Shown here in pieces: positions 8,562 through 54,761 of a stretch of DNA of 64,000 nucleotides. The notes beneath the pieces are model-generated. The model did no database searches. It was given only the letters and a program-made list of their open reading frames with translations, and had not been told where the DNA came from. The position numbers and the translations under genes are program-made. The stretch's first letter is position 1, and each line of letters begins with the position of its first letter. The stretch covers positions 21,084,848 through 21,148,847 of the forward strand of contig CM120643.1 of the NCBI GenBank assembly GCA_051362555.1, read 5' to 3'. Origin of the DNA: Lingula anatina. Lineage: Eukaryota > Animalia > Brachiopoda.

Positions 8562-11500
8562 GTAATTCGCAATCAGTTGTCTGACTGCTGCAGCCACAGT
8601 CATAAATTGTTAAGTTACATCTCGATTAGATTACTGCAACTGCATTTTATATGGTTGTCCAAAGAAACAAATTGCCAGACTGCAGCACATTCAAAATATT
8701 TTGGCCAGATTATTAACTCGGACATCCACAAGCACGTCTCCCAAGTTTTAAAAAGTTTACACTGGCTACCTCTACAAGCCAGAATTTTATTCAAAATTTT
8801 AGTTTTTACTCACGATACTTTTCATGGATTGGCACCAATCTACATCAATGAATTAGTTAGTCACTATGTTCCAATGCGAAATCTGCGGTCTGTAGACCAA
8901 TTGCTACTCAACCCAGTAAAAATGCAATTAAAAACCTACGGTGACATATCTTTTAAAGCTGCAGGTCCAAAGGAATGGAATCTATTACCGCTGGAAATCC
9001 GAGCAATTCAGTCTACCAAACATTTAAAAAAAGAACTCAAAACATACCTTTTTTAGGAAATATTTTGATTAACTCTTAATTGGTTTTATCAATCTTGTAT
9101 TAATTGCATTTAATTGTATGGAATAATGGCTGTTTTACCTAGATTTTATTTATGATATTTTATGTAGTATTATTTATGATATTTTATGTAAAGTCTACTG
9201 AACTTTTTAAAAGATTTTAGACTTAAAATAAATTTATTATTATTAGGCACAGGAGGTCCACCAGGTACAGGAGGTCCACCAGGCACAGGAGGTCCACCAG
9301 GTACAGGAGGCCCACCAGGAACAGGAGGTCCACCAGGTACAGGAGGCCCACCAGGAACAGGAGGTCCACCAGGTACAGGAGGTCCACCAGGAACAGGAGG
9401 TCCACCAGGTACTGGAGGCCCACCAGGAACAGGAGGTCCACCAGGTACAGGTGGCCCACCAGGAACAGGAGGTCCACCAGGTACAGGTGGTCCACCAGGC
9501 ACAGGAGGTCCCCCAGGAACAGGAGGTCCACCAGGCACAGGAGGTCCACCAGGTACTGGAGGCCCACCAGGAACAGGAGGTCCACCAGGCACAGGAGGAC
9601 CACCAGGCACAGTAGGTCCACCAGGCACAGGAGGGCCACCAGGAACAGGAGGCCCACCAGGTACAGGAGGTCCACCAGGCACAGGAGGTCCACCAGGTAC
9701 TGGAGGCCCACCAGGAACAGCAGGTCCACCAGGCACAGGAGGCCCACCAGGAACAGGAGGTCCACCAGGTACAGGTGGTCCACCAGGAACAGGAGGCCCA
9801 CCAGGAACAGGAGGCCCACCAGGAACAGGAGGTCCACCAGGAACAGGAGGCCCACCAGGAACAGGAGGTCCACCAGGAACAGGAGGTCCACCAGGAACAG
9901 GAGGTCCACCAGGAACAGGAGGCCCACCAGGAACAGGAGGTCCACCAGGTACAGGAGGTCCACCAGGAACAGGAGGTCCACCAGGCACAGGAGGCCCACC
10001 AGGTACAGGAGGTCCACCAGGAACAGGAGGTCCACCAGGAACAGGAGGTCCACCAGGCACAGGAGGTCCACCAGGTACAGGAGGTCCACCAGGAACAGGA
10101 GGCCCACCAGGTACAGGAGGTCCACCAGGAACAGGAGGTCCACCAGGAACAGGAGGTCCACCAGGCACAGGAGGTCCACCAGGTACTGGAGGCCCACCAG
10201 GTACAGGAGGTCCACCAGGCACAGGAGGACCACCAGGTACTGGAGGCCCACCAGGTACAGGAGGACCACCAGGCACAGGAGGCCCACCAGGAACAGGAGG
10301 TCCACCAGGTAATTCGCAATCAGTTGTCTGACTGCTGCAGCCACAGTCATAAATTGTTTAGTTACATCTCGATTAGATAACTGCAACTCCATTTTATACG
10401 GTTGTCCAAAGAAACAAATTGCCAGACTGCAGCACATTCAAAATATTTCGTCCAGATTATTAACTCGGACATCCACAAGCAAACACGTCTCCCAAGTTTT
10501 AAAAAGTTTACACTGGCTACCTCTACAAGCCAGAATTTTATTCAAAATTTTAGTTTTTACTCACGATGCTTTTTATGGATTGGCACCAATCTACATCAAT
10601 GAATTAGTTAGTCACTATGTTCCAATGCGAAATCTGCGGTCTGTAGACCAATTGCTACTCAACCCAGTAAAAATGCAATTAAAAACCTATGGTGACATAT
10701 GTTTTAAAGCTGCAGGTCTAAAGGAATGGAATCTATTACCGCTGGAAATCCGAGCAATTCAGTCTACCAAACATTTTAAAAAAGAACTCAAAACATACCT
10801 TTTTTAGGAAATATTTTGATTAACTCTTAATTGGTTTTATCAATCTTGTATTAATTGCATTTAATTGTATGGAATAATGGCTGTTTTACCTAGATTTTAT
10901 TTATGATATTTTATGTAGTATTATTTATGATATTTTATGTAAAGTCTACTGAACATTTTAAAAGGATTTTAGACTTAAAATAAATTTATTATTATTAGGC
11001 ACAGGAGGTCCACCAGGTACAGGAGGTCCACCAGGTACTGGAGGTCCACCAGGTACAGGAGGTCCACAAGGTACTGGAGGCCCACCAGGAACAGGAGGTC
11101 CACCAGGCACAGGAGGCCCACCAGGAACAGGAGGTCCACCAGGAACAGGAGGTCCACCAGGTACTGGAGGCCCACCAGGAACAGGAGGTCCACCAGGCAC
11201 TGGGGGCCCACCAGGAACAGGAGGTCCACCAGGCACAGGAGGTCCACCAGGTACTGGAGGCCCACCAGGAACAGGAGGTCCACCAGGTACAGGTGGTCCA
11301 CCAGGAACAGGAGGTCCCCCAGGAACAGGAGGTCCACCAGGAACAGGAGGTCCCCCAGGAACAGGAGGTCCACCAGGAACAGGAGGTCCACCAGGTACTG
11401 GAGGCCCACCAGGCACAGGAGGTCCACCAGGCACAGGAGGTCCACCAGGAACAGGAGGTCCACCAGGTACTGGAGGCCCACCAGGAACAGGAGGTCCACC

Positions 11501-14500
11501 AGGCACTGGGGGCCCACCAGGAACAGGAGGTCCACCAGGCACAGGAGGTCCACCAGGTACTGGAGGCCCACCAGGAACAGGAGGGCCACCAGGCACAGGA
11601 GGACCACCAGGTACAGCAGGTCCACCAGGCACAGGAGGGCCACCAGGAACAGGAGGTCCACCAGGTACAGGAGGTCCACCAGGCACAGGAGGTCCACCAG
11701 GTACTGGAGGCCCACCAGGTACAGGAGGTCCACCAGGCACAGGAGGACCACCAGGTACTGGAGGCCCACCAGGTACAGGAGGACCACCAGGCACAGGAGG
11801 CCCACCAGGAACAGGAGGTCCACCAGGTAATTCGCAATCAGTTGTCTGACTGCTGCAGCCACAGTCATAAATTGTTTAGTTACATCTCGATTAGATAACT
11901 GCAACTCCATTTTATACGGTTGTCCAAAGAAACAAATTGCCAGACTGCAGCACATTCAAAATATTTCGTCCAGATTATTAACTCGGACATCCACAAGCAA
12001 ACACGTCTCCCAAGTTTTAAAAAGTTTACACTGGCTACCTCTACAAGCCAGAATTTTATTCAAAATTTTAGTTTTTACTCACGATGCTTTTTATGGATTG
12101 GCACCAATCTACATCAATGAATTAGTTAGTCACTATGTTCCAATGCGAAATCTGCGGTCTGTAGACCAATTGCTACTCAACCCAGTAAAAATGCAATTAA
12201 AAACCTATGGTGACATATGTTTTAAAGCTGCAGGTCTAAAGGAATGGAATCTATTACCGCTGGAAATCCGAGCAATTCAGTCTACCAAACATTTTAAAAA
12301 AGAACTCAAAACATACCTTTTTTAGGAAATATTTTGATTAACTCTTAATTGGTTTTATCAATCTTGTATTAATTGCATTTAATTGTATGGAATAATGGCT
12401 GTTTTACTTAGATTTTATTTATGATATTTTATGTAGTATTATTTATGATATTTTATGTAAAGTCTACTGAACATTTTAAAAGGATTTTAGACTTAAAATA
12501 AATTTATTATTATTAGGCACAGGAGGTCCACCAGGTACAGGAGGTCCACCAGGTACAGGAGGTCCACCAGGAACAGCAGGTCCACCAGGCACAGGAGGGC
12601 CACCAGGAACAGGAGGCCCACCAGGTACAGGAGGTCCACCAGGCACAGGAGGTCCACCAGGTACAGCAGGTCCACCAGGCACAGGAGGGCCACCAGGAAC
12701 AGGAGGCCCACCAGGTACAGGAGGTCCACCAGGTACGGGAGGTCCACCAGGTACTGGAGGCCCACCAGGAACAGGAGGTCCACCAGGCACAGGAGGCCCA
12801 CCAGGCACAGGAGGTCCACCAGGAACAGGAGGTCCACCAGGCACAGGAGGCCCACCAGGAACAGGAGGTCCACCAGGAACAGGAGGTCCACCAGGAACAG
12901 GAGGTCCACCAGGTACAGGAGGTCCACCAGGAACAGGAGGTCCACCAGGTACAGGAGGCCCACCAGGAACAGGAGGTCCACCAGGTACAGGTGGTCCACC
13001 AGGCACAGGAGGTCCCCCAGGAACAGGAGGTCCACCAGGCACAGGAGGCCCACCAGGAACAGGAGGTCCACCAGGTACTGGAGGCCCACCAGGAACAGGA
13101 GGTCCACCAGGTACAGGAGGCCCACCAGGAACAGGAGGTCCACCAGGTACAGGTGGTCCACCAGGCACAGGAGGTCCACCAGGCACAGGAGGCCCACCAG
13201 GAACAGGAGGTCCACCAGGAACAGGAGGTCCACCAGGCACAGGAGGACCACCAGGTACAGGAGGTCCACCAGGAACAGGAGGTCCACCAGGAACAGGAGG
13301 CCCACCAGGTACAGGAGGTCCACCAGGCACAGGAGGTCCACCAGGTACTGGAGGCCCACCAGGTACAGGAGGTCCACCAGGCACAGGAGGTCCACCAGGT
13401 ACTGGAGGCCCACCAGGTACAGGAGGACCACCAGGCACAGGAGGCCCACCAGGAACAGGAGGTCCACCAGGTAATTCACAATCAGTTGTCTGACTGCTGC
13501 AGCCACAGTCATAAATTGTTAAGTTACATCTCGATTAGATTACTGCAACTGCATTTTATACGGTTGTCCAAAGAAACAAATTGCCAGACTGCAGCACATT
13601 CAAAATATTTTGGCCAGATTATTAACTCGGACATCCACAAGCAAACACGTCTCCCAAGTTTTAAAAAGTTTACACTGGCTACCTCTACAAGACAGAATTT
13701 TATTCAAAATTTTAGTTTTTACTCACGATACTTTTCATGGATTGGCACCAATCTACATCAATGAATTAGTTAGTCACTATGTTCCAATGCGAAATCTGCG
13801 GTCTGTAGACCAATTGCTACTCAACCCAGTAAAAATGCAATTAAAAACCTACGGTGACATATCTTTTAAAGCTGCAGGTCCAAAGGAATGGAATCTATTA
13901 CCGCTGGAAATCCGAGCAATTCAGTCTACCAAACATTTAAAAAAAGAACTCAAAACATACCTTTTTTAGGAAATATTTTGATTAACTCTTAATTGGTTTT
14001 ATCAATCTTGTATTAATTGCATTTAATTGTATGGAATAATGGCTGTTTTACCTAGATTTTATTTATGATATTTTATGTAGTATTATTTATGATATTTTAT
14101 GTAAAGTCTACTGAACATTTTAAAAGATTTTAGACTTAAAATAAATTTATTATTATTAGGCACAGGAGGTCCACCAGGTACAGGAGGTCCACCAGGTACA
14201 GGAGGTCCACCAGGTACTGGAGGCCCACCAGGAACAGGAGGTCCACCAGGCACAGGAGGCCCACCAGGAACAGGAGGTCCACCAGGCACAGGAGGTCCAC
14301 CAGGTACTGGAGGCCCACCAGGAACAGGAGGTCCACCAGGCACAGGAGGCCCACCAGGAACAGGAGGTCCACCAGGCACAGGAGGTCCACCAGGCACAGG
14401 AGGTCCACCAGGCACTGGAGGCCCACCAGGTACAGGAGGTCCACCAGGTACTGGAGGCCCACCAGGAACAGGAGGTCCACCAGGCACAGGAGGTCCACCA

Positions 14501-17500
14501 GGAACAGGAGGCCCACCAGGTACAGGAGGTCCACCAGGCACAGGAGGTCCACCAGGTACAGGAGGTCCACCAGGAACAGGAGGTCCACCAGGCACAGGAG
14601 GACCACCAGGTACAGCAGGTCCACCAGGCACAGGAGGGCCACCAGGCACAGGAGGACCACCAGGTACAGCAGGTCCACCAGGCACAGGAGGGCCACCAGG
14701 AACAGGAGGACCACCAGGCACAGGAGGTCCACCAGGTACTGGAGGCCCACCAGGTACAGGAGGACCACCAGGCACAGGAGGCCCACCAGGAACAGGAGGT
14801 CCACCAGGTAATTCGCAATCAGTTGTCTGACTGCTGCAGCCACAGTCATAAATTGTTTAGTTACATCTCGATTAGATTACTGCAACTCCATTTTATACGG
14901 TTGTCCAAAGAAACAAATTGCCAGACTGCAGCACATTCAAAATATTTCGGCCAGATTATTAACTCCGACATCCACAAGCAAACACGTCTCCCAAGTTTTA
15001 AAAAGTTTACACTGGCTACCTCTACAAGCCAGAATTTTATTCAAAATTTTAGTTTTTACTCACGATGCTTTTTATGGATTGGCACCAATCTACATCAATG
15101 AATTAGTTAGTCACTATGTTCCAATGCGAAATCTGCGGTCTGTAGACCAATTGCTACTCAACCCAGTAAAAATGCAATTAAAAACCTACGGTGACATATC
15201 TTTTAAAGCTGCAGGTCCAAAGGAATGGAATCTATTACCGCTGGAAATCCGAGCAATTCAGTCTACCAAAAATTTTTAAAAAGAACTCAAAACATACCTT
15301 TTTTAGGAAATATTTTGATTAACTCTTAATTGGTTTTATACATCTTGTATTAATTGCATTTAATTGTATGGAATAATGGCTGTTTTACCTAGATTTTATT
15401 TATGATATTTTATGTAGTATTATTTATGATATTTTATGTAAAGTCTACTGAACATTTTAAAAGGATTTTAGACTTAAAATAAATTTATTATTATTAGGCA
15501 CAGGAGGTCCACCAGGTACAGGAGGTCCACCAGGTACAGGAGGTCCACCAGGTACTGGAGGCCCACCAGGAACAGGAGGTCCACCAGGCACAGGAGGTCC
15601 ACCAGGTACTGGAGGCCCACCAGGTACTGGAGGTCCACCAGGCACAGGAGGCCCACCAGGAACAGGAGGTCCACCAGGTAATTCGCAATCAGTTGTCTGA
15701 CTCTGTTGCAGCCACAGTCATAAATTGTTTAGTTACATCTCGATTAGATTACTGCAACTCCATTTTATACAGTTGTCCAAAGAAACAAATTGTCAGACTG
15801 CAGCATATTCAAAATATTTCGTCCAGATTATTAACTCGGACATCCACAAGCAAACACGTCTCCCAAGTTTTAAAAAGTTTACACTGGCTACCTCTACAAG
15901 CCAGAATTTTATTCAAATTTTTAGTTTTTACTCACGATGCTTTTTATGGATTGGCACCAATCTACATCAATGAATTAGTTAGTCACTATGTTCCAATGCG
16001 AAATCTGCGGTCTGTAGACCAATTGCTACTCAACCCAGTAAAAATGCAATTAAAAACCTATGGTGACATATGTTTTAAAGCTGCAGGTCTAAAGGAATGG
16101 AATCTATTACCGCTGGAAATCCGAGCAATTCAGTCTACCAAACATTTTAAAAAAGAACTCAAAACATACCTTTTTTAGGAAATATTTTGATTAACTCTTA
16201 ATTGGTTTTATCAATCTTGTATTAATTGCATTTAATTGTATGGAATAATGGCTGTTTTACCTAGATTTTATTTATGATATTTTATGTAGTATTATTTATG
16301 ATATTTTATGTAAAGTCTACTGAACATTTTAAAAGGATTTTAGACTTAAAATAAATTTATTATTATTAGGCACAGGAGGTCCACCAGGTACAGGAGGTCC
16401 ACCAGGTACTGGAGGTCCACCAGGTACAGGAGGTCCACCAGGTACTGGAGGCCCACCAGGAACAGGAGGTCCACCAGGCACAGGAGGCCCACCAGGAACA
16501 GGAGGTCCACCAGGAACAGGAGGTCCACCAGGTACTGGAGGCCCACCAGGAACAGGAGGTCCACCAGGCACTGGGGGCCCACCAGGAACAGGAGGTCCAC
16601 CAGGCACAGGAGGTCCACCAGGTACTGGAGGCCCACCAGGAACAGGAGGTCCACCAGGTACAGGTGGTCCACCAGGAACAGGAGGTCCCCCAGGAACAGG
16701 AGGTCCACCAGGAACAGGAGGTCCCCCAGGAACAGGAGGTCCACCAGGAACAGGAGGTCCACCAGGTACTGGAGGCCCACCAGGCACAGGAGGTCCACCA
16801 GGCACAGGAGGTCCACCAGGAACAGGAGGTCCACCAGGTACTGGAGGCCCACCAGGAACAGGAGGTCCACCAGGCACTGGGGGCCCACCAGGAACAGGAG
16901 GTCCACCAGGCACAGGAGGTCCACCAGGTACTGGAGGCCCACCAGGAACAGGAGGGCCACCAGGCACAGGAGGACCACCAGGTACAGCAGGTCCACCAGG
17001 CACAGGAGGGCCACCAGGAACAGGAGGTCCACCAGGTACAGGAGGTCCACCAGGCACAGGAGGTCCACCAGGTACTGGAGGCCCACCAGGTACAGGAGGT
17101 CCACCAGGCACAGGAGGACCACCAGGTACTGGAGGCCCACCAGGTACAGGAGGACCACCAGGCACAGGAGGTCCACCAGGAACAGGAGGTCCACCAGGTA
17201 ATTCGCAATCAGTTGTCTGACTGCTGCAGCCACAGTCATAAATTGTTTAGTTACATCTCGATTAGATAACTGCAACTCCATTTTATACGGTTGTCCAAAG
17301 AAACAAATTGCCAGACTGCAGCACATTCAAAATATTTCGTCCAGATTATTAACTCGGACATCCACAAGCAAACACGTCTCCCAAGTTTTAAAAAGTTTAC
17401 ACTGGCTACCTCTACAAGCCACCCAGATAGCAAAGAGTGGTCGCGCCAACGTCGGCCCGACGACTTTGCCTCCGTCGGGCCAACGTTGGCAGACGACGTC

Positions 17501-20500
17501 GGTTCGAAGTCGGCGTGTCCGGCGGCCCGCCGTCGGCCCACCGGTGGTCTGCCACCCTTTTGCCAACGTCGCACCGACGCTGGGCCGACGTCATTATGGA
17601 TAAACGGCGGTCAGCCGCTGTCATGCCGACAATTTGCCAACTTCGCGCCAACGTCGGGCCAACGTCGTTATGAGCTATTACTACCGGCGGTTAGCCGCTG
17701 TTATGCCGACCTTTTGCCGACGTCGCGCCAACGTTGGGCCAATGTCGTTATGAGCTATTACTATCGGCGGTTAGCCGCTGTTATGCCAACGGTGCCACCT
17801 TCTTGCCAACTTCGCGCCAACGTCGTTAACCATCGTTTTACCACCGTTATGCAAATAATGCCGTTCTTTAATTAGCCAATGTTATTATGGACTCTCCATG
17901 GTCAGCCAGCTATGACTCAATTGGCGAACGTTGGCAATAGGGTAGCAGCGGCGTTTCTTCGTAATAACCCTCTCACTGAAGTGAAAAAGTCCCGTTGGCC
18001 TAAAAGATAATAATAATAACAACTTGAATCATGTTTTGTGAAGAAACATCTTTATAAATCTGAGTGAGTTAATAACGATAATTCAATTAATTATTGAAAA
18101 TAAATATTATTACTGATGTATCTCTAAAGATCTACTTTACAGATGTCATATATAATCCAAGCTTTCGGTCCCTAGGCCTTCTATAGAGACATTAAAAAAA
18201 TGGCGAAGAAAAACTCCTGGGGTATGTGGCGTCGATGATGTATTAAAGGCACGCGATGCTGCAAAAGCGTCCTAAACGCTAAACGTAACATATAAAAAAT
18301 CAATATTCATTTAAGAAACTATTGTCCCTACTGAGTCCATTATTCAAGGTGTCTAGTGTTCTAATACATTTCTGTACGGCGATCCGTCTTTGCCTAGTGT
18401 CGTTTTCTTTTAAGACGGTGACGGTGATGCCTTTAGCTGAGTGTTGTGTTGTCCCACAGGCACGAAGAGGTTTTTGTTGTTTATAGGGCAGCGGTGGTGT
18501 CTAATTCTGTCTTTTAATTTCTGCCTCGTTTCCCCGACGTACATTTGATGGCATTGTTAACATCATATCAAATAGATGACGCTCTGTGAGTCGCAAGATT
18601 TGCAGCATATCTTTGACTACGACACTACGCTGGAAAGAAGTGACTGTGGCCTTAATTCCCACACGGGACGAAGAGGAATGATGATGATGACTAAGATTCA
18701 TCTGAGGAACTCTGCTGCGGCGCCTGGGCTGCTTCTCTCTCTGTGAAGAGAATAGAAAAATATAAAAACTCACACTTAATCTAATAAAACATACAAAATT
18801 CACCGTTAATATCATATGTTATTTCACTGATATGCAAAATAAAAAACGGCTAAGAAGACAACTGAAACCAAGCTTAAGGAATCTAGCATGATACTGATCC
18901 ACGTTTCTCTAACTATTATTTTTCTATTTGCGATGTGAAATGTTCTAAACTTTATGAGGTCAGGGACAGACAGGTTAGTTTTGTACGCTCGATTTTGGCC
19001 GCAACGAATCAACAATCCATGTTTCTCTATCGTATTATTGAACCGTTGGTTTCAGTTGTCTTCTAATGACTTATTTCCTAGTTCGCATCCAATCCACCCG
19101 CGCTTATTCGTAATGTTGCATATTGAAATGAAGTTGTTAATGTATACTTTGAAATGTAGACGAAATAATGTAATTATTTTCCAGGGAAGTGGTTACTCTG
19201 CTAAATTTATTACCCTTCTTCTTCTCCAGCCTCCTCCTTCTACCCCCATCCCTGTCACTAGTTACATATATTTTAAGAAGAATAATGTACTAAATTCCAG
19301 AAGAGAGTAGCAGGCAAGAAGTAGGCTAAATTAATTTCTTAGTTGTTTACTACTTAATCCATTGATAGGGATGATATAAGTTAAACTACTGCATCTTACC
19401 ATGGCAATGACACACTGAAGCACTTTAACTATATACACACATACCTTTCAAGTGTATTTTCTTGTGAGGATTGACTGCTCAACACAGGCGACAAATAGGT
19501 AGTAATGCATGATGGAAGACTATAAGAGAAATATGAGATACATATTAAGTGTGGCTTTGTAATGTGCACAAAATGCCTTGTCTAATTATGAGCCTAAACC
19601 AAAAAAAAAAAAAAAACATTATTATCCCAGCAGGCAAATCAACATTGAATCAATGTTGAATCAACATTGATGGTCAACGTTGAAATGATGTTGATATGAC
19701 GTTGACTATGAAAGTTGACTCAACGTTGAACCATCAAGGTTGAATCAACCTTGAGGTATCAATGTTGAATCAACATTGACGGTCAATGTTGAAACTATGT
19801 TGATATGACGTTGACTATGAAAGTTGACTCAACGTTGAACCATCAAGGTTGAATCAACCTTGAGGTCTCAATGTTGAATCAATGTTGACGGTCAACGTTG
19901 AAACTGTTGATATGACGTTGACTATGAAAGTTGAATCAACGTTGAACCATCAAGGTTGAATCAACCTTGAGGTTTCAATGTTGAATCAACGTTGAAAGTC
20001 AACGTTGAAACTATGTTGATGTGACGTTGACTATGAAAGTTGACTCAACGTTGAACCATCAAGGTTGAATCAACCTTGAGGTATCAATGTTGAATCAACG
20101 TTGACAGTCAACATTGAAACTTTGTTGATATGACGTTGACTATGAAAGTTGAATCAACGTTGAACCATCAAGGTTGAATCAACCTTGAACCATCATGGTT
20201 GAAACAACCCTGACGTATCAATGTTGAATCAACATTGATACCTCAATGTTGAATCAATGTTGAAATAAAGTTGAATTTGAAAATTGAATTAACGTTGATA
20301 TATCAATTAGGCTATCAGGATATTTGATTGAAATTTGCCTGATGGCTGAAGGTGTTCTCCAAGATATTAACCATTTCTTGAAATAAAAAGACTCAGATCT
20401 GAAAAGGGGGGGAAATTAGGAAAATTACCTACAAAAAAAGGTAATTTCGGAAGAAAAGGGGGGTGGGGTCCAGACCCCGGGACCGGCCCCTGTATCCACC

Positions 20501-35500: not shown

Positions 35501-38500
35501 GGAGGTCCACCAGGTAATTCGCAATCAGTTGTCTGACTGCTGCAGCCACAGTCATAAATTGTTTAGTTACATCTCGATTAGATTACTGCAACTCCATTTT
35601 ATACGGTTGTCCAAAGAAACAAATTGTCAGACTGCAGCACATTCAAAATATTTTGTCCAGATTATTAACTCGGACATCCACAAGCAAACACGTCTCCCAA
35701 GTTTTAAAAAGTTTACACTGGCTACCTCTACAAGCCAGAATTTTATTCAAAATTTTAGTTTTTACTCACGATGCTTTTTATGGATTGGCACCAATCTACA
35801 TCAATGAATTAGTTAGTCACTATGTTCCAATGCGAAATCTGCGGTCTGTAGACCAATTGCTACTCAACCCAGTAAAAATGCAATTAAAAACCTACGGTGA
35901 CATATCTTTTAAAGCTGCAGGTCCAAAGAAATGAAATCTATTACCGCTGGAAATCCGAGCAATTCAGTCTACCAAAAATTTTTAAAAAGAACTCAAAACA
36001 TACCTTTTTTAGGAAATATTTTGATTAACTCTTAATTGGTTTTATCCATCTTGTATTAATTGCATTTAATTGTATGGAATAATGGCTGTTTTACCTAGAT
36101 TTTATTTATGATATTTTATGTAGTATTATTTATGATATTTTATGTAAAGTCTACTGAACATTTTAAAAGGATTTTAGACTTAAAATAAATTTATTATTAT
36201 TAGGCACAGGAGGTCCACCAGGTACAGGAGGTCCACCAGGTACAGGAGGTCCACCAGGTACTGGAGGCCCACCAGGAACAGGAGGTCCACCAGGCACAGG
36301 AGGCCCACCAGGAACAGGAGGTCCACCAGGCACAGGAGGTCCACCAGGTACTGGAGGCCCACCAGGAACTGGAGGTCCACCAGGCACAGGAGGCCCACCA
36401 GGAACAGGAGGTCCACCAGGAACAGGAGGTCCACCAGGCACAGGAGGTCCACCAGGCACTGGAGGCCCACCAGGTACAGGAGGTCCACCAGGCACTGGAG
36501 GCCCACCAGGAACAGGAGGTCCACCAGGCACAGGAGGTCCACCAGGCACAGGAGGTCCACCAGGTACTGGAGGCCCACCAGGAACAGGAGGTCCACCAGG
36601 CACAGGAGGTCCACCAGGTACAGGAGGCCCACCAGGAACAGGAGGTCCACCAGGTACAGGAGGCCCACCAGGAACAGGAGGTCCACCAGGTACAGGAGGT
36701 CCACCAGGAACAGGAGGTCCACCAGGTACTGGAGGCCCACCAGGAACAGGAGGTCCACCAGGCACAGGGGGCCCACCAGGAACAGGAGGTCCACCAGGTA
36801 CAGGTGGTCCACCAGGCACAGGAGGTCCCCCAGGAACAGGAGGTCCACCAGGCACAGGAGGTCCACCAGGTACTGGAGGCCCACCAGGTACAGGAGGTCC
36901 AAGAGGCACAGGAGGACCACCAGGTACAGCAGGTCCACCAGGCACAGGAGGGCCACCAGGAACAGGAGGCCCACCAGGTACAGGAGGTCCACCAGGTACA
37001 GGAGGTCCACCAGGTACTGGAGGCCCACCAGGAACAGGAGGTCCAACAGGCACAGGAGGCCCACCAGGAACAGGAGGTCCACCAGGTACAGGTGGTCCAC
37101 CAGGAACAGGAGGCCCAACAGGTACAGGAGGCCCACCAGGAACAGGAGGTCCACCAGGTACAGGAGGTCCACCAGGTACTGGAGGCCCACCAGGAACAGG
37201 AGGTCCACCAGGCACAGGAGGTCCACCAGGCACTGGAGGTCCACCAGGCACAGGAGGTCCACCAGGCACTGGAGGTCCACCAGGCACAGGAGGTCCACAA
37301 GGCACTGGAGGCCCACCAGGTACAGGAGGTCCACCAGGTACTGGAGGCCCACCAGGAACAGGAGGTCCACCAGGCACAGGAGGTCCACCAGGCACAGGAG
37401 GTCCACCAGGTACTGGAGGCCCACCAGGAACAGGAGGTCCACCAGGCACAGGAGGTCCACCAGGTACAGGAGGCCCACCAGGAACAGGAGGTCCACCAGG
37501 TACAGGAGGCCCACCAGGAACAGGAGGTCCACCAGGTACAGGAGGTCCACCAGGAACAGGAGGTCCACCAGGTACTGGAGGCCCACCAGGAACAGGAGGT
37601 CCACCAGGCACAGGTGGCCCACCAGGAACAGGAGGACCACCAGGTACAGGTGGTCCACCAGGCACAGGAGGTCCCCCAGGAACAGGAGGTCCACCAGGCA
37701 CAGGAGGTCCACCAGGTAATGGAGGCCCACCAGGAACTGGAGGTCCACCAGGAACAGGAGGACCACCAGGTACAGCAGGTCCACCAGGCACAGGAGGGCC
37801 ACCAGGAACAGGAGGCCCACCAGGTACAGGAGGTCCACCAGGTACAGGAGGTCCACCAGGTACTGGAGGCCCACCAGGAACAGGAGGTCCACCAGGCACA
37901 GGAGGACCACCAGGTACAGCAGGTCCACCAGGCACAGGAGGGCCACCAGGAACAGGAGGCCCACCAGGTACAGGAGGTCCACCAGGTACAGGAGGTCCAC
38001 CAGGTACTGGAGGCCCACCAGGAACAGGAGGTCCACCAGGCACAGGAGGACCACCAGGTACAGCAGGTCCACCAGGCACAGGAGGGCCACCAGGCACAGG
38101 AGGCCCACCAGGTACAGGAGGTCCACCAGGTACAGGAGGTCCACCAGGTACTGGAGGCCCACCAGGAACAGGAGGTCCAACAGGCACAGGAGGCCCACCA
38201 GGAACAGGAGGTCCACCAGGTACAGGTGGTCCACCAGGAACAGGAGGCCCAACAGGTACAGGAGGTCCACCAGGAACAGGAGGTCCACCAGGAACAGGAG
38301 GCCCACCAGGAACAGGAGGTCCACCAGGTACTGGAGGCCCACCTGGAACAGGAGGTCCACCAGGCACAGGAGGCCCACCAGGAACAGGAGGTCCACCAGG
38401 TACAGGAGGTCCACCAGGTACTGGAGGCCCACCAGGAACAGGAGGCCCACCAGGAACAGGAGGTCCACCAGGTAGTTCGCAATCAGTTGTCTGACTCTGC

Positions 38501-41500
38501 TGCAGCCACAGTCATAATTTTTTTTTTTTTTTTTTTTTATTGACATCACAAAACAAAACATACATTTTTCACACTAAACACATATTACAACATATATGCA
38601 ACAGACACAAACTAGCTTACAGTAGTCTCATTGGACATTAACAGCACAAGGGAGTGACAGAATACGTTGCACAAAATAACAGAAGTAATAGTATACAGTA
38701 CACATAACACAAACTGATTAACATATATCGTAACATATAAACAAACAAACCAGCTTATTATCATATATAAGTCACATCGGATTCTACATATTACAAACGT
38801 ACTATTTATACCACAGTCACAATATATGATATTATGCCGGTTGTCGGGAATAACACAAAGCACCACTCACTTACAAGATCATACAGAACAATTAAGCGTA
38901 CAAAAGTCTCCACTTAGTTGTGAACTCAGGTACACATAACAAGTTGCTAAACATTACAAACCAACATATATCAAGTATCCACGAACAATCTGGTGCAACA
39001 CAAAAGACTGACAGTACGGAAAGATATTAGACATGCACAATTGGCTATGACTCCAAACAGTAAGAGATTGTCATACATTTACACTCAACTCGTATTGTAT
39101 CATTCTAAGTAAGGCTAAGTATTAAATTGTGTAAAATCTAGGTACATAGTCATAAATTGTTTAGTTACATCTCGATTAGATTACTGCAACTCCATTTTAT
39201 ACAGTTGTCCAAAGAAACAAATTGTCAGACTGCAGCACATTCAAAATATTTCGGCCAGATTATTAACTCGGACATCCACAAGCAAACACGTCTCCCAAGT
39301 TTTAAAAAGTTTACACTGGCTACCTCTACAAGCCAGAATTTTATTCAAATTTTTAGTTTTTACTCACGATGCTTTTTATGGATTGGCACCAATCTACATC
39401 AATGAATTAGTTAGTCACTATGTTCCAATGCGAAATCTGCGGTCTGTAGACCAATTGCTACTCAACCCAGTAAAAATGCAATTAAAAACCTACGGTGACA
39501 TATCTTTTAAAGCTGCAGGTCCAAAGGAATGGAATCTATTACCGCTGGAAATCCGAGCAATTCAGTCTACCAAAAATTTTTAAAAAGAACTCAAAACATA
39601 CCTTTTTTAGGAAATATTTTGATTAACTCTTAATTGGTTTTATCAATCTTGTATTAATTGCATTTAATTGTATGGAATAATGGCTGTTTTACCTAGATTT
39701 TATTCATGATATTTTATGTAGTATTATTTATGATATTTTATGTAAAGTCTACTGAACATTTTAAAAGGATTTTAGACTTAAAATAAATTTATTATTATTA
39801 GGCACAGGAGGTCCACCAGGTACAGGAGGTCCACCAGGCACAGGAGGTCCACCAGGTACAGGAGGCCCACCAGGAACAGGAGGTCCACCAGGTACAGGAG
39901 GTCCACCAGGAACAGGAGGTCCACCAGGTACTGGAGGCCCACCAGGAACAGGAGGTCCACCAGGCACAGGTGGCCCACCAGGAACAGGAGGTCCACCAGG
40001 TACAGGTGGTCCACCAGGCACAGGAGGTCCCCCAGGAACAGGAGGTCCACCAGGTACTGGAGGCCCACCAGGAACAGGAGGTCCACCAGCCACAGGAGGA
40101 CCACCAGGTACAGCAGGTCCACCAGGCACAGGAGGGCCACCAGGAACAGGAGGCCCACCAGGTACAGGAGGTCCACCAGGTACAGGAGGTCCACCAGGTA
40201 CTGGAGGCCCACCAGGAACAGGAGGTCCACCAGGCACAGGAGGCCCACCAGGAACAGGAGGTCCACCAGGTACAGGTGGTCCACCAGGAACAGGAGGCCC
40301 ACCAGGTACAGGAGGTCCACCAGGAACAGGAGGTCCACCAGGAACAGGAGGCCCACCAGGAACAGGAGGTCCACCAGGTACAGGAGGTCCACCAGGTACT
40401 GGAGGCCCACCAGGAACAGGAGGTCCACCAGGAACAGGAGGTCCACCAGGAACAGGAGGTCCACCAGGCACAGGAGGCCCACCAGGTACAGGAGGTCCAC
40501 CAGGAACAGGAGGTCCACCAGGAACAGGAGGTCCACCAGGTACAGGAGGTCCACCAGGAACAGGAGGCCCACCAGGTACAGGAGGTCCACCAGGAACAGG
40601 AGGTCCACCAGGAACAGGAGGTCCACCAGGAACAGGAGGTCCACCAGGTACTGGAGGCCCACCAGGTAGAGGAGGTCCACCAGGCACTGGAGGCCCACCA
40701 GGTACAGGAGGTCCACCAGGCACAGGAGGTCCACCAGGTACTGGAGGCCCACCAGGTACTGGAGGTCCACCAGGCACAGGAGGCCCACCAGGAACAGGAG
40801 GTCCACCAGGTAATTCGCAATCAGTTGTCTGACTCTGCTGCAGCCACAGTCATAAATTGTTTAGTTACATCTCGATTAGATTACTGCAACTCCATTTTAT
40901 ACAGTTGTCCAAAGAAACAAATTGCCAGACTGCAGCACATTCAAAATATTTCGGCCAGATTATTAACTCGGACATCCACAAGCAAACACGTCTCCCAAGT
41001 TTTAAAAAGTTTACACTGGCTACCTCTACAAGCCATAATTTTATTCAAATTTTTAGTTTTTACTCACGATGCTTTTTATGGATTGGCACCAATCTACATC
41101 AATGAATTAGTTAGTCACTATGTTCCAATGCGAAATCTGCGGTCTGTAGACCAATTGCTACTCAACCCAGTAAAAATGCAATTAAAAACCTACGGTGACA
41201 TATCTTTTAAAGCTGCAGGTCCAAAGGAATGGAATCTATTACCGCTGGAAATCCGAGCAATTCAGTCTACCAAACATTTTTAAAAAGAACTCAAAACATA
41301 CCTTTTTTAGGAAATATTTTGATTAACTCTTTATTGGTTTTATCAATCTTGTATTAATTGCATTTAATTGTATGGAATAATGGCTGTTTTACCTAGATTT
41401 TATTTATGATATTTTATGTAAAGTCTACTGAACATTTTAAAAGGATTTTAGACTTAAAATAAATTTATTATTATTAGGCACAGGAGGTCCACCAGGCACA

Positions 41501-44500
41501 GGAGGTCCACCAGGAACAGGAGGTCCACCAGGCACAGGAGGTCCACCAGGAACAGGAGGTCCACCAGGTACAGGAGGTCCACCAGGAACAGGAGGTCCAC
41601 CAGGCACAGGAGGTCCACCAGGTACTGGAGGTCCACCAGGCACAGAAGGTCCACCAGGAACAGGAGGTCCACCAGGCACAGGAGGTCCACCAGGCACAGG
41701 AGGTCCACCAGGCACTGGAGGCCCACCAGGTACAGGAGGTCCACCAGGTACTGGAGGCCCACCAGGAACAGGAGGTCCACCAGGCACAGGAGGTCCACCA
41801 GGCACTGGAGGCCCACCAGGAACAGGAGGTCCACCAGGTACTGGAGGCCCACCAGGAACAGGAGGGCCACCAGGCACAGGAGGACCACCAGGTACTGGAG
41901 GCCCACCAGGAACAGGAGGTCCACCAGGTACAGGAGGCCCACCAGGAACAGGAGGTCCACCAGGTAATTCGCAATCAGTTGTCTGACTGCTGCAGCCACA
42001 GTCATAAATTGTTTAGTTACATCTCGATTAGATTACTGCAACTCCATTTTATACGGTTGTCCAAAGAAACAAATTGCCAGACTGCAGCACATTCAAAATA
42101 TTTCGTCCAGATTATTAACTCGGACATCCACAAGCAAACACGTCTCCCAAGTTTTAAAAAGTTTACACTGGCTATCTCTACAAGCCAGAATTTTATTCAA
42201 AATTTTAGTTTTTACTCACGATGCTTTTTATGGATTGGCACCAATCTACATCAATGAATTAGTTAGTCACTATGTTCCAATGCGAAATCTGCGGTCTGTA
42301 GACCAATTGCTACTCAACCCAGTAAAAATGCAATTAAATACCTACGGTGACATGTGTTTTAAAGCTGCAGGTCTAAAGGAATGGAATCTATTACCGCTGG
42401 AAATCCGAGCAATTCAGTCTACCAAACATTTTAAAAAAGAACTCAAAACATACCTTTTTTAGGAAATATTTTGATGAACTCTTAATTGATTTTATCAATC
42501 TTGTATTAATTGCATTTAATTGTATGGAATAATGGCTGTTTTACCTAGATTTTATTTATGATATTTTATGTAAAGTCTACTGAACATTTTAAAAGGATTT
42601 TAAAAGGACTTGAAATAAATTTATTATTAGGCACAGGAGGTCCACCAGGTACTGGAGGTCCACCAGGTACAGGAGGTCCACCAGGTACTGGAGGCCCACC
42701 AGGAACAGGAGGTCCACCAGGCACAGGAGGCCCACCAGGAACAGGAGGTCCACCAGGCACAGGAGGTCCACCAGGTACTGGAGGCCCACCAGGAACAGGA
42801 GGTCCACCAGGAACAGGAGGTCCACCAGGTACTGGAGGCCCACCAGGAACAGGAGGTCCACCAGGTACAGGAGGTCCACCAGGAACAGGAGGTCCACCAG
42901 GAACAGGAGGTCCACCAGGTACTGGAGGCCCACCAGGAACAGGAGGTCCACCAGGCACAGGAGGACCACCAGGTACAGCAGGTCCACCAGGAACAGGAGG
43001 TCCACCAGGCACAGGAGGTCAACCAGGCACAGGAGGTCCACCAGGCACAGGAGGTCCACCAGGTACTGGAGGCCCACCAGGAACAGGAGGTCCACCAGGC
43101 ACAGGAGGTCCACCAGGTACTGGAGGCCCACCAGGTACAGGAGGTCCACCAGGCACAGGAGGTCCACCAGGCACAGGAGGCCCACCAGGAACAGGAGGTC
43201 CACCAGGTACAGGAGGTCCACCAGGAACAGGAGGTCCACCAGGTACTGGAGGCCCACCAGGAACAGGAGGTCCACCAGGCACAGGAGGCCCACCAGGAAC
43301 AGGAGGTCCACCAGGTACAGGAGGTCCACCAGGAACAGGAGGTCCACCAGGAACAGGAGGTCCACCAGGTACTGGAGGCCCACCAGGAACAGGAGGTCCA
43401 CCAGGAACAGGAGGTCCACCAGGAACAGGAGGTCCACCAGGCACAGGAGGTCCACCAGGCACAGGAGGTCCACAAGGTACTGGAGGCCCACCAGGTACAG
43501 GAGGTCCACCAGGCACAGGAGGTCCACCAGGCACAGGAGGTCCACCAGGTACTGGAGGCCCACCAGGAACAGGAGGTCCACCAGGCACAGGAGGCCCACC
43601 AGGAACAGGAGGTCCTCCAGGTACAGGAGGTCCACCAGGAACAGGAGGTCCACCAGGAACAGGAGGTCCACCAGGTACTGGAGGCCCACCAGGAACAAGA
43701 GGTCCACCAGGCACTGGGGGCCCACCAGGAACAGGAGGTCCATCAGGCACAGGAGGTCCACCAGGTACTGGAGGTCCACCAGGAACAGGAGGTCCACCAG
43801 GTACAGGTGGTCCACCAGGAACAGGAGGTCCCCCAGGAATAGGAGGTCCACCAGGAACAGGAGGTCCACCAGGTACTGGAGGCCCACCAGGCACAGGAGG
43901 TCCACCAGGCACAGGAGGTCCACCAGGCACAGGAGGTCCACCAGGTACTGGAGGCCCTCCAGGAACAGGAGGTCCACCAGGCACAGGAGGCCCACCAGGA
44001 ACAGGAGGTCCACCAGGTACAGGTGGTCCACCAGGCACAGGAGGTCCCCCAGGAACAGGAGGTCCACCAGGCACAGGAGGTACCCCAGGAACAGGAGGTC
44101 CACCAGGCACAGGAGGCCCACCAGGAACAGGAGGTCCACCAGGTAATTCGCAATCAGTTGTCTGACTGCTGCAGCCACAGTCATAAATTGTTTAGTTACA
44201 TCTCGATTAGATTACTGCAACTCCATTTTATACGGTTGTCCAAAGAAACAAATTGCCAGACTGCAGCACATTCAAAATATTTCGGCCAGATTATTAACTC
44301 GGACATCCACAAGCAAACACGTCTCCCAAGTTTTAAAAAGTTTACACTGGCTACCTCTACAAGCCAGAATTTTATTCAAATTTTTAGTTTTTACTCACGA
44401 TGCTTTTTATGGATTGGCACCAATCTACATCAATGAATTAGTTAGTCACTATGTTCCGATGCGAAATCTGCGGTCTGTAGACCAATTGCTACTCAACCCA

Positions 44501-47343
44501 GTAAAAATGCAATTAAAAACTTACGGTGACATGTCTTTTAAAGCTGCAGGTCCAAAGGAATGGATTCTATTACCGCTGGAAATCCGAGCAATTCAGTCTA
44601 CCAAACATTTTAAAAAAGAACTCAAAACATACCTTTTTTAGGAAATATTTTGATTAACTCTTAATTGGTTTTATAAATCTTGTATTAATTGCATTTAATT
44701 GTATGGAATAATGGCTGTTTTACCTAGATTTTATTTATGATATTTTATGTAGTATTATTTATGATATTTTATGTAAAGTCTACTGAACATTTTAAATGGA
44801 TTTTAGACTTAAAATAAATTTATTATTATTAGGCACAGGAGGTCCACCAGGTACAGGAGGTCCACCAGGTACTGGAGGTCCACCAGGTACAGGTGGTCCA
44901 CCAGGAACAGGAGGCCCACCAGGCACAGGAGGTCCACCAGGAACAGGAGGTCCACCAGGTACAGGAGGTCCACCAGGTACTGGAGGTCCACCAGGTACAG
45001 GAGGTCCACCAGGTACTGGAGGCCCACCAGGAACAGGAGGTCCACCAGGCACAGGAGGCCCACCAGGAACAGGAGGTCCACCAGGTACAGGAGGTCCACC
45101 AGGTACTGGAGGCCCACCAGGAACAGAAGGCCCACCAGGAACAGGAGGTCCACCAGGCACTGGAGGTCCACCAGGAACAGGAGGCCCACCAGGCACAGGA
45201 GGTCCACCAGGAACAGGAGGTCCACCAGGCACAGGAGGTCCACCAGGCACTGGAGGCCCACCAGGCAAAGGAGGTCCACCAGGAACAGGAGGTCCACCAG
45301 GCACAGGAGGTCCACCAGGTACAGGTGGTCCACCAGGAACAGGAGGCCCACCAGGGAGAAGAGGTCCACCAGGGACAGGAGGTCCACCCGGACAGAAGGG
45401 AATGAAAGGTTAAATTTACCCATGTTCAATACGAAATATATATTTTATAATTTACCTAGAAAAGCACTCAGAGAGCACAGACCTCCGCCAAGGGAGTAAA
45501 GTCTCCATTCAATGTCGTTTCACCCTTAAATTTTTGATATTTTTTTTATTCTTGATTGATTATTGATCCGGATCACCATCAAAAACTAATCACCTGTTCC
45601 TTGGCCCACTTCCCTCAGTTCCTGAAATTTTATCAAAATCGGTCAATAACTCAGTTTTTTTTAAATTTTTTATTATTGATTATTGATTGAGTATTGATCC
45701 AGATTACCACCAAAAACTATTCACTTGTAAGTTAACCCATTTCTGACCTACCCTGAAAATGCCATCGAAATCCATCCATAACTTTTTGAGTTATATTGAT
45801 GACAAACAAACAAACAAACAGGGGTGAAAACATAACCTCCTTGGCGGAGGTAAAAATATTATTTCTTTCAAGTAATAATGATAGTAACTAAAGCCAATGG
45901 CTGCAAAAAATGGATTAATTCATTGGGAAGATTTCTTGAAAATTACAGTTTAGGTGTTTTGGCCTATTATTGCATTTGTTTTTACTCATCCCTCTTTTTT
46001 AACACTGATGAAAATGATATTTGAACTTGTTTATAGAGTTTTGATATATTTTGTTTAATCAAAGATTTAACCTTTTAAGGAATGAAAGGACTTCCTGGAG
46101 GGGGAAAGGGATCTAAGGGAATGAAAGGTAAGACGGTGAACAAGATAGACGATACAAGCTGCCCAAATTACAAACACAATGCAGTTGAATACAAAATTAG
46201 AATTCACTTTCTTTAAATGAATTCACTTTCTTCGTATGAGATCTATATTTCACAGTAAAAACATTGCAAACAACTCACAGAAATACATTTTCTATTTTAC
46301 CACAAAAATGGCAGTTAAAGCAATTATTCTTAAATCTGTGCTCGTCTTCAGACCATGTGACCTCCATACAGGTAGATGGCTATAAAAAACAAACTTTCTA
46401 GAAAAAAATCCATTGACTAAATTTGAATGTAGAAATGGATTTATTAACCATTGGTAAGTATGGGAAAATTGTTTACCCCGGGGAAATTCATTATTTGACC
46501 AAAATGAACAGTTGTTATCCCTTTAATTATGCATCTGCTTTATTATTCTGTCTTTAAAGCACTTTCCCTTCAAAAGACAAAAGGCTGCGCCGTGCTAGAT
46601 TTTATTAATAGTTACCACATTGTTCAATAGGATGGACGGTCCGAAGCGTATGAAAATACAGGCAAGCGTGTACACTGATTCTATTGTGAGGAGCGCCGCC
46701 ATTGGTAAAAAAGGAGATAATGTGGGTGTATAGAGACATATGTCGAAGACACGTGTTTTCTCCCGTCCTGTAACGTCCATAACGCATGGGCAAAGTGACC
46801 ATGACTCCTTCTACCGGGTTCACAGATTTTCCCTTGATTTCCACAGATGTGTATCTGGCTTATTCTTGACAATTTTGTCTTATGCCCCGCAAGATTTTTT
46901 TACTTGGAATCAATAGCCTTTTGCAGCTAGATGAGTAGATATTGACTTCTTTTGTTTACTGAAGAGCTTGGCATATTTCATCACTCGGCCGGTCTCCGGT
47001 ATAGAGTAGACCCTAAACACATATAATAAGTAATTTATGGGCAGTGTTGAAGTCAATCAGATGACACACGTTTTGTATCCATCGCATAAAGCACGGAGCG
47101 GCAAATTGTCTTTTGACGGGAAAGTGCTTCAAATCTTGATGAAATTTAAGGGTGCATGCTAAATAGCTGTCAGCCGAGCAGACAAGAAAGTTAATTACCC
47201 CCTTACAGCTTGTAGTAGGCGGGACGGACATTTAAGCCGGATTATCTGACAGTAATCTAGTGAGACTCCCCGCGGGGATAGATCGATCTAAAAGGACTGG
47301 GAATACAGCCTAAGTCACCGAATTAGAGCTATTACCCTATTGG

Positions 47344-50300: not shown

Positions 50301-50598
50301 CATATAACCTCTAGCTTTATTTTTCAATTCAGGTATGAAAGGCGACAGAGGGATGCCAGGTTTGAAAGGGATGAAAGGCATGAAAGGCAACAGAGGGACA
50401 GGTTCCAAGGGAATGAAGGGCGATAGAGGGATGCCGGGTTTCAATGGGATTAAAGGGATGAAAGGCGACAAAGGGAGAAGAGGTAACAGAGGGATGAAAG
50501 GCAACAGAGGGATGAAAGGCAACAAAGGGAGGAGAGGTAACAGAGGGATGAAGGGCTCCAAAGGATCCCCAGGTAGGATAATCAATTAAATTTGTTTT

Positions 50599-52369: not shown

Positions 52370-54761
52370 GAGGTCATATTACTCAATCATACACTGTATG
52401 AGGGATTTGTGTCACTACCAGTTTTGACATACGAAAGCAAAAAAAAAAAAAAAAAATCAGTTTTGAAGAACAAAGCTCCATGTGTTATAGGAAAACGTGT
52501 CTCAGATATACGGGCATATGCAAACTAACCTCTGCTGTAAAGACGAGCAATCAAATATCGTAGGTGGATGCATAATTATCGAATAAAAGCTCAGGCAGCC
52601 AAATATATAACTGTATGCATTGCAGTCTCCGTTAAAGAAAATAAATTTGTGCATTACTAAAACCACAGTCTCTCTGCAGTAGTTTATTACATGCACTTTA
52701 TTAAATAACCTCGAATTGGACATTTCAATATAAGAAGAGTGCATATAATTGATTTGATACGTCCAATTATTCTAGAATATATTCATCGGAAAATGGAACA
52801 AAAGAAAAAAAGCAAGTAGGCCTAAGCAACGAAATGAAACTCCGAATAACAGAGTGCGGTTTTATTTGCAACTGTATTAACTGCACACAATACCAGTACA
52901 ACTGTATCTGTGTCCTTATCTTGTGGGTTATAAAACTTTTCCCACCCCACTTCCTTCATATAAACAAAGTTTAATTAATAAAAAAGGACATGCTATATAG
53001 GCCTACGTAGGCCAATACAATCATTCGAATACATGTAGGCCTACATGCAGCCACATGCGTACAGTCACTCGGCATTTACTTTTGGGGGGCCTATAACACA
53101 TCAAAATAGATAAAATATACAATAAAAGAAAAAATAAATAAAATTATATACACGATGAGAGAAAAAATAAAACTGCACGACAAAACAGGAAAAATGACAA
53201 CAATTGTGTTAGTTGTGCCAGGCTATTCGAAAATAAACGCATTCTCCATTTTGCCACCGTGTCGTAAAAGAGCCTCTGTGAGGAAGGAGACCTAATGCTT
53301 ACCATGACAGAAATATCGTATTGCAAGTACCTGAACAACCACACAGACGTTCCTGATATAACATACATTACGCCATAAACAAAATAAATATAAATACACT
53401 TACGACCAGTTTCAGTTGTGTAGGCCTACTTCCGTCCTCGTCCGTAAGTACCCGCCTCTGATATTCCTCGTCCGTAAGTTCCCGCCTCTGATATTATAAA
53501 TGAGTGTGCATGACAACGGGTATCAGTAGCTAACAGTTCAGTGCATTGCTTTCTATCTTCTATCTTGGTTTCTATTAAATATGAGTGAACATAAATATAG
53601 GTATATACAGATACCTATGTCAAGATTGGCTTAGTTAATTATTTTGCCAATAGATGGCGGTACCAGTATTGGCCCCATGCATGGTCACAGAGCAGCCCGT
53701 GAGTTAAAGTATCGAGATCAGTATAAGTAACGAACAATTCATTGAGGTACCCCCTATTGTGAATTGGTTAATACCAAAAAATTATTAAAACGTATTTGTG
53801 AGGTATTGCTGCAGTATACGGTGGTCGGTGTTTTACAGTGTCAAGATTAGCTTAGTTTGTGACTTTGCCAATAGATGGCGAAACGAGTTACTTTGTAAGT
53901 GATACTGGAAGGTATTTAGTTGTTATGGACTACAATAATCTTGTTTTTTGTATATCCGCTCTCGTCTCTTGTATTTTATGGGGTAAAATTGCATCTTAGA
54001 TAATTTTTCAACTCAGAAGCATACTTGCACTATAAAGTACTGCACTCCTTTTTAACGTTTTTGGTGACCTCTTTGATATGTAAGGTATATAAGTGCTCCC
54101 GCTTGAAAGATATGGGTGGACATAACTGAAAAATAACTGCAAAAGGTCGTGATTGGCTTTTCAGAAGTGCGATGGTGCGGAAAGGCGGGTGAGGGTGATT
54201 AATCAAATAAATAAAATAAAATAAAATAAAATAAAATAAAATAAAAAACCCGACACACTGTTGAGTTGCTAGTTGACCATCTTTTCCCAGTTATTTATTC
54301 GGGCCAGGACCATAAATAGAAAGAATGGTGAACGCATGAAACCTCGTACTATAAGTATACATAGATACAAACAAACAAACAAACATACATACATACATAC
54401 ATACATGCATACATGTGGTTCGCAGTAAGTGATTTTAATTTAAAAATGTTACACTGGTCATAAGTAAAGCAATACCTTGGGATATTCAAAACCTTCTAGT
54501 ACAGTATCGCGGTCGTTATTTGTTATTCCAATGGGGTTGTCTTTTTCTTTCATATTCCATGAATATTTTGTGGGATAGGACATTTCTATTAAAATACACC
54601 AATACAACACACTGTACTGTAAATAATGCGAATACCTTCGTTAACAAAATGGTTCTAAAAATAAACATACCTCTTGGCTAGGGTCCAGTGGATCATATAG
54701 CTCTTAATTTAATACTGAGAATGATTTTATTTTAGAACATTCTGTTTTAGAGAAGGGGTGC

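Follow-up and report, generated by a model that had tools for sequence, protein, structure and literature searches.

Near-identical introns iterated along a single gene are known from the repetitive structural genes of spiders. In the MaSp2 and Flag genes of Argiope, the introns are iterated and homogenized, with 97.6% identity, and both unequal crossing over and alternative splicing that would change length only have already been raised for them (PMC9779670); the terms "transposable" and "retrotranspos" have 0 occurrences in its main text. Other lines of work concern introns made by mobile elements. The classic way for a transposon to become a precisely excised intron is insertion at AGGT (PMC3443670). 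Among classified introners, elements without long terminal repeats (non-LTR elements) account for 5%, and tens of introns can occur in one gene (PMC12130899), while elements of the L2 clade produce 3–5 bp target duplications, with truncated copies joining the target through microhomology or extra bases (PMC4245944). Here, we describe a 64,000-nt stretch of the brachiopod Lingula anatina (the window; assembly GCA_051362555.1, contig CM120643.1, positions 21,084,848 to 21,148,847 of the forward strand), which holds a predicted gene whose (GTGGPP)n repeat is divided by 17 predicted introns consisting of the tail of a long interspersed nuclear element (LINE). We consider it likely that a 5'-truncated CR1/L2-type LINE tail entered the repeat once, in the sense orientation and at one of its Pro-Gly junctions, that splicing removes it as a GT-AG intron of phase 1, and that unequal recombination multiplied it.

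The Lingula locus resembles MaSp2 and Flag in encoding a giant Gly/Pro-rich repeat protein, in the near-identical introns (98.5% here) between repeat exons, and in the novelty and lineage specificity of these introns (PMC9779670). In MaSp2, however, exons of similar size define ensemble repeats (same source), whereas here the exons range from 10 to 315 units without regular size. Unlike in MaSp2 and Flag, the source of the introns is legible here, and the gene is not a spidroin: it lacks such termini and has a predicted membrane anchor. The 5' truncation, 3–5 bp duplication, and 5' microhomology reported for L2-clade insertions (PMC4245944) would be compatible with the junctions of the Lingula introns, the clade of our element being presumed from a motif. 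The AGGT protosplice-site intron (PMC3443670) would share with the present case the duplicated AG|G flanks, the AG|GT donor, the AG|G acceptor, and the exact restoration of coding; the Lingula element differs in being a 5'-truncated LINE, in drawing its T-rich tract from the tail, in having AGGC as the right copy, and in its proposed multiplication in cis. Like introners, the Lingula introns are near-identical and transposon derived, and the locus can be regarded as a single introner event; unlike introners, which owe each intron to its own transposition into an unrelated site (PMC12130899), they would go back to one transposition, their truncation point and flanks being common to the copies. 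No homogenized intron array traced to a LINE tail was found in searches of open-access papers, and the supplementary data of PMC12130899 may contain similar cases.

Seventeen predicted introns in one minisatellite

An 18-nt, G+C-rich minisatellite extends from position 2,891 to 45,389 of the window and is interrupted by 17 A+T-rich blocks, every one of which starts with GT and ends with AG. The first donor lies at 8562, the last acceptor at 44832, and the last repeat exon ends at 45408. Fifteen of the 17 predicted introns measure 667–692 bp, and introns 7 (6,209 bp) and 14 (1,330 bp) are longer because each received one later insertion. With these insertions excluded from the alignment, pairs of introns differ on average by 10.2 substitutions over ~690 positions (1.5%), with a maximum of 17, and a single pair among the 136, introns 2 and 8, is identical. 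Aligned to intron 2, all 17 introns start from base 1, i.e., from a common 5' truncation point, as an earlier note on this DNA had observed.

The repeat blocks between these introns are whole multiples of 18 nt in 18 out of 18 cases, each with 10–315 units, and the 1,370 units, 1,303 of which encode GTGGPP, contain no stop codon. All internal exons are of phase 1-1. The 17 downstream exons all open with one common unit type, which makes up 12% of all units, and the 17 upstream exons all close with another, which makes up 28%; the last two units are common to 13 of the 17 upstream exons and the last four to 9. Repeat exon 1 (2891..8561, + strand) comprises 315 units. The 1,055 units of repeat exons 2–18 (9247..45408, + strand) are distributed as 59, 46, 53, 36, 10, 46, 59, 46, and 125 in exons 2–10 and as 65, 74, 112, 126, 56, 27, 84, and 31 in exons 11–18, each exon lying between two LINE introns and exon 18 merging gradually into a collagen stalk. 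The near-identity, sizes, and conserved GT and AG of the introns, the free exon size in whole units, and the common terminal units had all been described in the earlier note and hold up on full counting; its span of 8562..45408 takes in the array and leaves out the 315-unit exon, which precedes that start.

All introns lie on the + strand. Intron 1 (8562..9246, 685 bp) is closest to intron 4 (13471..14159, 689 bp). Nine introns have a length of 690 bp: intron 2 (10309..10998) and its identical counterpart intron 8 (24469..25158), intron 3 (11827..12516), intron 5 (14808..15497), intron 9 (25987..26676), intron 10 (28927..29616), intron 11 (30787..31476), intron 13 (35514..36203), and intron 17 (44143..44832). 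Intron 6 (15678..16369, 692 bp) is a chimera in which the LINE frame is open from base 1. Intron 7 (17198..23406) contains a 5.5-kb DNA transposon, intron 12 (32809..33497) measures 689 bp, and intron 14 (38472..39801) has a 632-bp insertion. Introns 15 (40810..41477, 668 bp), with the LINE frame open for 157 codons from base 1, and 16 (41964..42630, 667 bp) are the shortest.

The predicted introns are LINE tails from end to end

The query for LINE homology was the 157-aa peptide translated from intron 15, from base 1 on. It matched 88 of 106 candidates, the best at 52% identity over 100% of the peptide, and one named homolog is a fish protein with the RVT_1 domain above Pfam's cut-off; for the intron-15 fragment itself, which is without the reverse transcriptase domain, no Pfam family exceeded its cut-off. 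When 38 of the 88 matches are aligned with it, the homology begins at the first codons of the intron. If the 17 copies are read by majority, the LINE frame remains open to a natural stop at codon 167, past which follow a 3' untranslated region (UTR), AATAAA, and a (TTA)n tail placed directly against the acceptor AG and present in all 17 copies. A separate, older LINE relic of the same type (54753..55105, + strand), with its (TTA)n end at 55,090–55,105, provides an internal control for the natural 3' end. Each predicted intron is, from its first to its last base, the 3' end of one CR1/L2-type LINE: the C-terminus of open reading frame 2 (ORF2), the 3' UTR, and (TTA)n. The clade label is one that we presume from a motif. 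Most copies have a 2-bp frameshift in common, and their tails are nearly equal in length. A metagenome scan with the LINE peptide returned 3 of 187 stretches, at 37–53% identity, and no source family; the (TTA)n tail was missing in the 3 metagenome loci fetched.

Junctions and the probable birth of the intron

With CCA GG at its Pro-Gly junctions, the repeat offers AG|G once in every unit, amounting to 1,349 in-register AGs. The left junction is CCAG|GTAATT, with the repeat register running on for 4 bases at the 5' end, and the right junction is TTATT AG|GC, where 1 base before the acceptor G keeps the repeat register. The repeat flank makes the length of the target duplication ambiguous, and 0–5 bp (or plus 18n) are compatible with it. 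The donor matches 8 out of 9 consensus positions in 16 copies and 7 in intron 14, against 6–7 in decoys; the 20 nt before the acceptor contain 10 T, compared with a mean of 1.3 and a maximum of 3 before the internal AGs of exon 1. Because LINE sequence fills the whole intron and both splice sites fall on an AG|G that the repeat itself provides, the locus points to the birth of an intron rather than to a LINE within an old one.

These features suggest how the intron may have arisen. The intron is LINE from base +1, with ORF2 codons, the 3' UTR, and the (TTA)n tail. If a short target duplication copied AGG, or as much as AGGTA given 5' microhomology and a single synonymous change afterwards, the left end would have become AG|GT and the right end AG|G; a blunt insertion would fit the junctions as well. 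The +4 and +6 bases of the donor and the T-rich tract would stem from the LINE, the purine-rich exon being without such a tract. With LINE-supplied signals at a duplicated AG|G, excision would restore the repeat exactly. Exons 2–18 would then be translated as part of one single-pass membrane protein of 8,544 aa, as the selection acting on them suggests. Finally, out-of-register pairing of 18-nt units and introns would have duplicated exon tails together with the adjoining intron, a pattern that is evident in the array, and because any in-register crossover keeps both the frame and the splice sites, intron number and exon size could change freely.

Selection on the exons

Variants of the repeat unit occur as 1,709 synonymous versus 69 nonsynonymous changes, and the glycine at every third position is changed in 1 of 2,740 cases versus 40 of 1,370 for the glycine at position Y. 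For exons 2–18, where neighboring units were collapsed into events, every-third glycine is affected in 1 of 27 amino acid-changing events (p = 2.6e-4) and Y-position glycine, which has the same codon make-up, in 6. A strict count, confined to exons 2–17 and to changes not found in exon 1, gives 1 of 13 for every-third glycine (p = 0.016). The introns have undergone 9 events, namely 7 small indels (counted in 15 of the 17 copies) and 2 insertions, versus no off-register indel in 24,660 nt of exon. The LINE frame decays neutrally, with 6 synonymous changes, 26 missense changes, and 3 stops in 15 copies. Given that exons 2–18 have no stops and no off-register indels and keep their every-third glycine while the LINE frame decays, we infer that the 17 LINE introns are likely spliced. 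As 29–38 nt on each side of every junction recur inside exons, short-read junctions cannot settle splicing.

A probable course from one intron to seventeen

The same truncation point and a divergence of 1.5% argue for one insertion rather than 17, as the earlier note had supposed. Exons 7 and 9 are identical, exon 3 differs from them by 2 nt, and exons 2 and 8 show 17 differences over 1,062 sites; the longest exact repeat is 1,444 bp. Blocks of unit variants common between exons span 20–46 units, and common runs link exon 4 with the tail of exon 1 (32 units), exon 10 with exon 11 (37), and exon 12 with exon 13 (27), exon 4 amounting to the end of exon 1 behind a different beginning. Introns that follow related exons pair alike (1/4, 2/3/7/8/9, 10/11, and 12/13), and intron distance correlates with the upstream exon end held in common (rho = -0.37, Mantel p = 0.017), which is tracked better by the 3' half of the intron (p = 0.003) than by the 5' half (p = 0.09). 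Intron 6 is chimeric: its 5' half is nearest to introns 14 and 15, and its 3' half is identical to that of introns 2, 8, and 9. Moreover, 39 of 210 site pairs are incompatible in the four-gamete test.

The upstream exon ends common to related introns, together with the chimeric intron, argue that the single insertion was followed by unequal exchange, in line with the mode of multiplication that had been proposed. The usual duplicated piece is an exon tail plus its intron. Breakpoints within exons respect the 18-nt register, which leaves exon size free, and at least one breakpoint lies within the LINE, in intron 6. The picture of an exon and LINE-intron module is thereby retained for its LINE component, established by homology, and given up as regards a fixed module. 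An intron phylogeny, which had been suggested as a check, yields a tree with poor support in which recombination is a confounder; we therefore claim no order of events.

Weighing the alternatives

Several observations weigh against a single insertion that is spliced and spread by unequal exchange. Read through without splicing, each of the 17 copies runs into a stop after 7 codons, and each carries AATAAA 17–20 nt before the acceptor. The acceptor tract has only 10 pyrimidines in 20 nt, compared with 11–16 for the five ordinary acceptors of the gene, and the exons contain 453 in-register decoy donors. The synonymous excess among unit variants is largely inherited from old variants, and the strict count comprises 2 synonymous and 13 nonsynonymous events (7 and 31 available types), i.e., no general missense deficit. 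The collapsed events are not fully independent, and the contrast in indels is helped by AT-rich runs in the introns and by in-register slippage. As for the spread of the introns, intron distance is not correlated with the beginning of the downstream exon (p = 0.42), and the half-intron result is unlike the pattern predicted for frequent intronic crossovers. The read-through stop, the AATAAA, and the young variants without a general missense deficit would all suit a LINE insertion that remained unspliced and truncated or killed the gene, after which LINE and minisatellite were amplified as a noncoding satellite. Such a satellite, however, would hardly protect every-third glycine in exons 2–18 or keep 1,055 units free of stops and off-register indels while the introns took 9 events, and the five downstream exons retain frame, phase, and GT-AG; we regard this scenario as quite unlikely.

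Somewhat less likely still is that one intron was born and then transferred by gene conversion into intron-less sites of an already long exon, in which case added introns would have left protein length unchanged. Each junction between units offers a homologous recipient site, the first and last flanking units are common to all copies, and recombination among copies is evident, all of which accords with such a transfer; yet whole exons and long exon tails (20–46 units) were duplicated along with the introns, which intron-only conversion would not do. Less likely again is a real array whose copy number is inflated by misassembly or merged haplotypes. It would account for the identity of introns 2 and 8 and of exons 7 and 9 and for the 1,444-bp exact repeat, but only 1 of the 136 intron pairs is identical, the identical pieces have different neighbors, and two copies have insertions of their own, each with a target duplication. 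That the LINE entered a small, older phase-1 intron, of which nothing but the splice sites would now survive, is very improbable: the five ordinary introns of the gene are likewise of phase 1 at Gly codons, but neither end of the repeat introns has any non-LINE sequence, with ORF2 homology from base +1 and the tail abutting the AG. Seventeen independent insertions of a repeat-targeting LINE, for which every unit would offer a target junction, are scarcely credible in the face of the identical truncation point, the 2-bp frameshift in most copies, the common flanking units, and the near-equal tails.

The host gene and its predicted product

The gene model runs from an ATG at 2,831 through 18 repeat exons and five ordinary exons, 25,635 nt in total, and encodes 8,544 aa with a single stop at the end; removal of the 17 GT-AG introns restores the frame, and all introns of the gene are of phase 1 with GT-AG ends. 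The predicted start codon and signal peptide-like N-terminus (2831..2893, + strand; 21 aa, basic, then hydrophobic, then polar) are in frame with the repeat and preceded by in-frame stops, with a hydrophobic 9-mer score of 2.0. Upstream of the start, the short stretches 1579–1596 and 2797–2815, each flanked by AG and GT, are possible 5' exons that would alter the N-terminus. Coding on the minus strand was considered and rejected: it shares the wobble positions but is without GT-AG boundaries or a link to the downstream exons.

The ordinary exons are on the + strand, the first four being of phase 1-1. Exon 19 (46080..46127, 48 nt) encodes Gly-X-Y, exon 20 (50333..50572, 240 nt) a conventional charged collagen Gly-X-Y, exon 21 (50813..50998, 186 nt) a linker rich in Gly, Thr, Arg, and Phe, and exon 22 (51397..51528, 132 nt) short repeats rich in Gly, Asn, and Phe. 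The last exon (52080..52369) encodes a juxtamembrane stretch, a hydrophobic helix (19-residue score 3.27), basic stop-transfer residues, and a tail of ~40 aa ending in S-L-V before the stop. We take this end of the cytoplasmic tail (52340–52369) to resemble a class I PDZ-binding motif, S-x-V. A region with heptad-like spacing precedes the membrane helix and could trimerize the rod.

In searches, exon 20 matched solved collagens (35 sequences), a low-complexity match, and the repeat exon had 5 matches among 7,993 candidates, all of them generic collagens of vertebrates (41–48% identity). For the last exon, there were 0 relatives among 1.84 billion representatives and 0 among 3,431 longer candidates, and Pfam gave only sub-threshold matches to membrane helices. 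Gly-X-Y runs of 2,377 and 368 triplets make up most of the product, which is predicted to be a 675-kDa single-pass type I membrane protein with a Gly-X-Y rod of ~8,200 residues. The collagen-like rod may form a triple helix, a polyproline-II coil, or a bundle, and its length would be ~2.4 micrometers, computed with the rise of collagen. Membrane collagens (types XIII, XVII, XXIII, and XXV) and membrane mucins likewise combine a long extracellular rod, Gly-X-Y or Pro/Thr-rich, with a single membrane helix. Unlike the membrane collagens, which we take to be of type II topology, the Lingula product is predicted to be type I and has ~2,740 triplets, with Gly in every second Y position.

Because every internal exon is of phase 1-1, skipping any of them would be frame neutral, as the earlier note had reasoned, and it is possible that the length of the rod is tuned in this way. 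A bolder proposal, which we hold to be unlikely, is that a single young LINE insertion gave rise to a splice-and-cleave ruler, in which unit junctions act as frame-safe splice sites, exons can be skipped, and the 17 LINE tails, each with an in-frame stop and AATAAA, would yield a ladder of anchored and secreted rods of ~0.5–2.4 micrometers, the number of rungs varying between alleles.

Later insertions and other elements in the window

The insertion in intron 7 (17422..22938, no strand assigned) is a non-autonomous-looking DNA transposon of 5,517 bp with 12-bp perfect terminal inverted repeats (TIRs) starting with CCC and a 2-bp target duplication; we presume it to be of the EnSpm/CACTA type. 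It holds a nested element resembling a miniature inverted-repeat transposable element (MITE) at ~19626–21929 and internal repeats of 61, 68, 80, 91, and 109 bp. MITE-like elements with the same CCCAGC...GCTGGG termini lie at 1604–2543 and 19626–21929. The insertion in intron 14 (38518..39149, 632 bp) is a poly(A)-tailed retro-insertion in antisense orientation (- strand), with 21 T on the + strand and an 8-bp target duplication; no second copy occurs within the window.

Elsewhere, two adjoining pairs of inverted repeats (58430–59055 and 59810–60434), one pair of 285 nt at 99% and the other of 349 nt at 100%, make up arms of ~625 bp around a 754-nt spacer; they represent either a foldback or long-TIR element of very recent origin or an assembly fold. 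An interspersed repeat has two diverged copies, one at 45520–45863, in the intron after exon 18, and one at 59032–59256, and a direct duplication of ~300 bp (~100–420 and 1110–1400) is seen by eye upstream of the gene.

Implications

The locus is well explained as two known processes in sequence, a LINE insertion that would have created an intron and the unequal recombination that would have multiplied it, and it is unusually legible. It is rare for an intron birth to leave its donor, its junctions, and its aftermath all open to inspection; in this array, the majority reading still has an open LINE frame, the splice sites map onto Pro-Gly codons of the host repeat, and unit variants allow the subsequent spread to be followed. 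The case also calls for caution in screens for introners, because 17 near-identical introns can come from one transposition. The host product is itself unusual, a predicted 675-kDa type I protein with a micrometer-scale Gly-X-Y rod and no relative found in our searches. More broadly, the array offers a concrete origin for homogenized introns in genes of repetitive structural proteins, spider MaSp2 being an example, and it leads to the prediction that Pro-Gly repeats, with their CCA GGN junctions, would be pre-adapted to absorb retrotransposon insertions.

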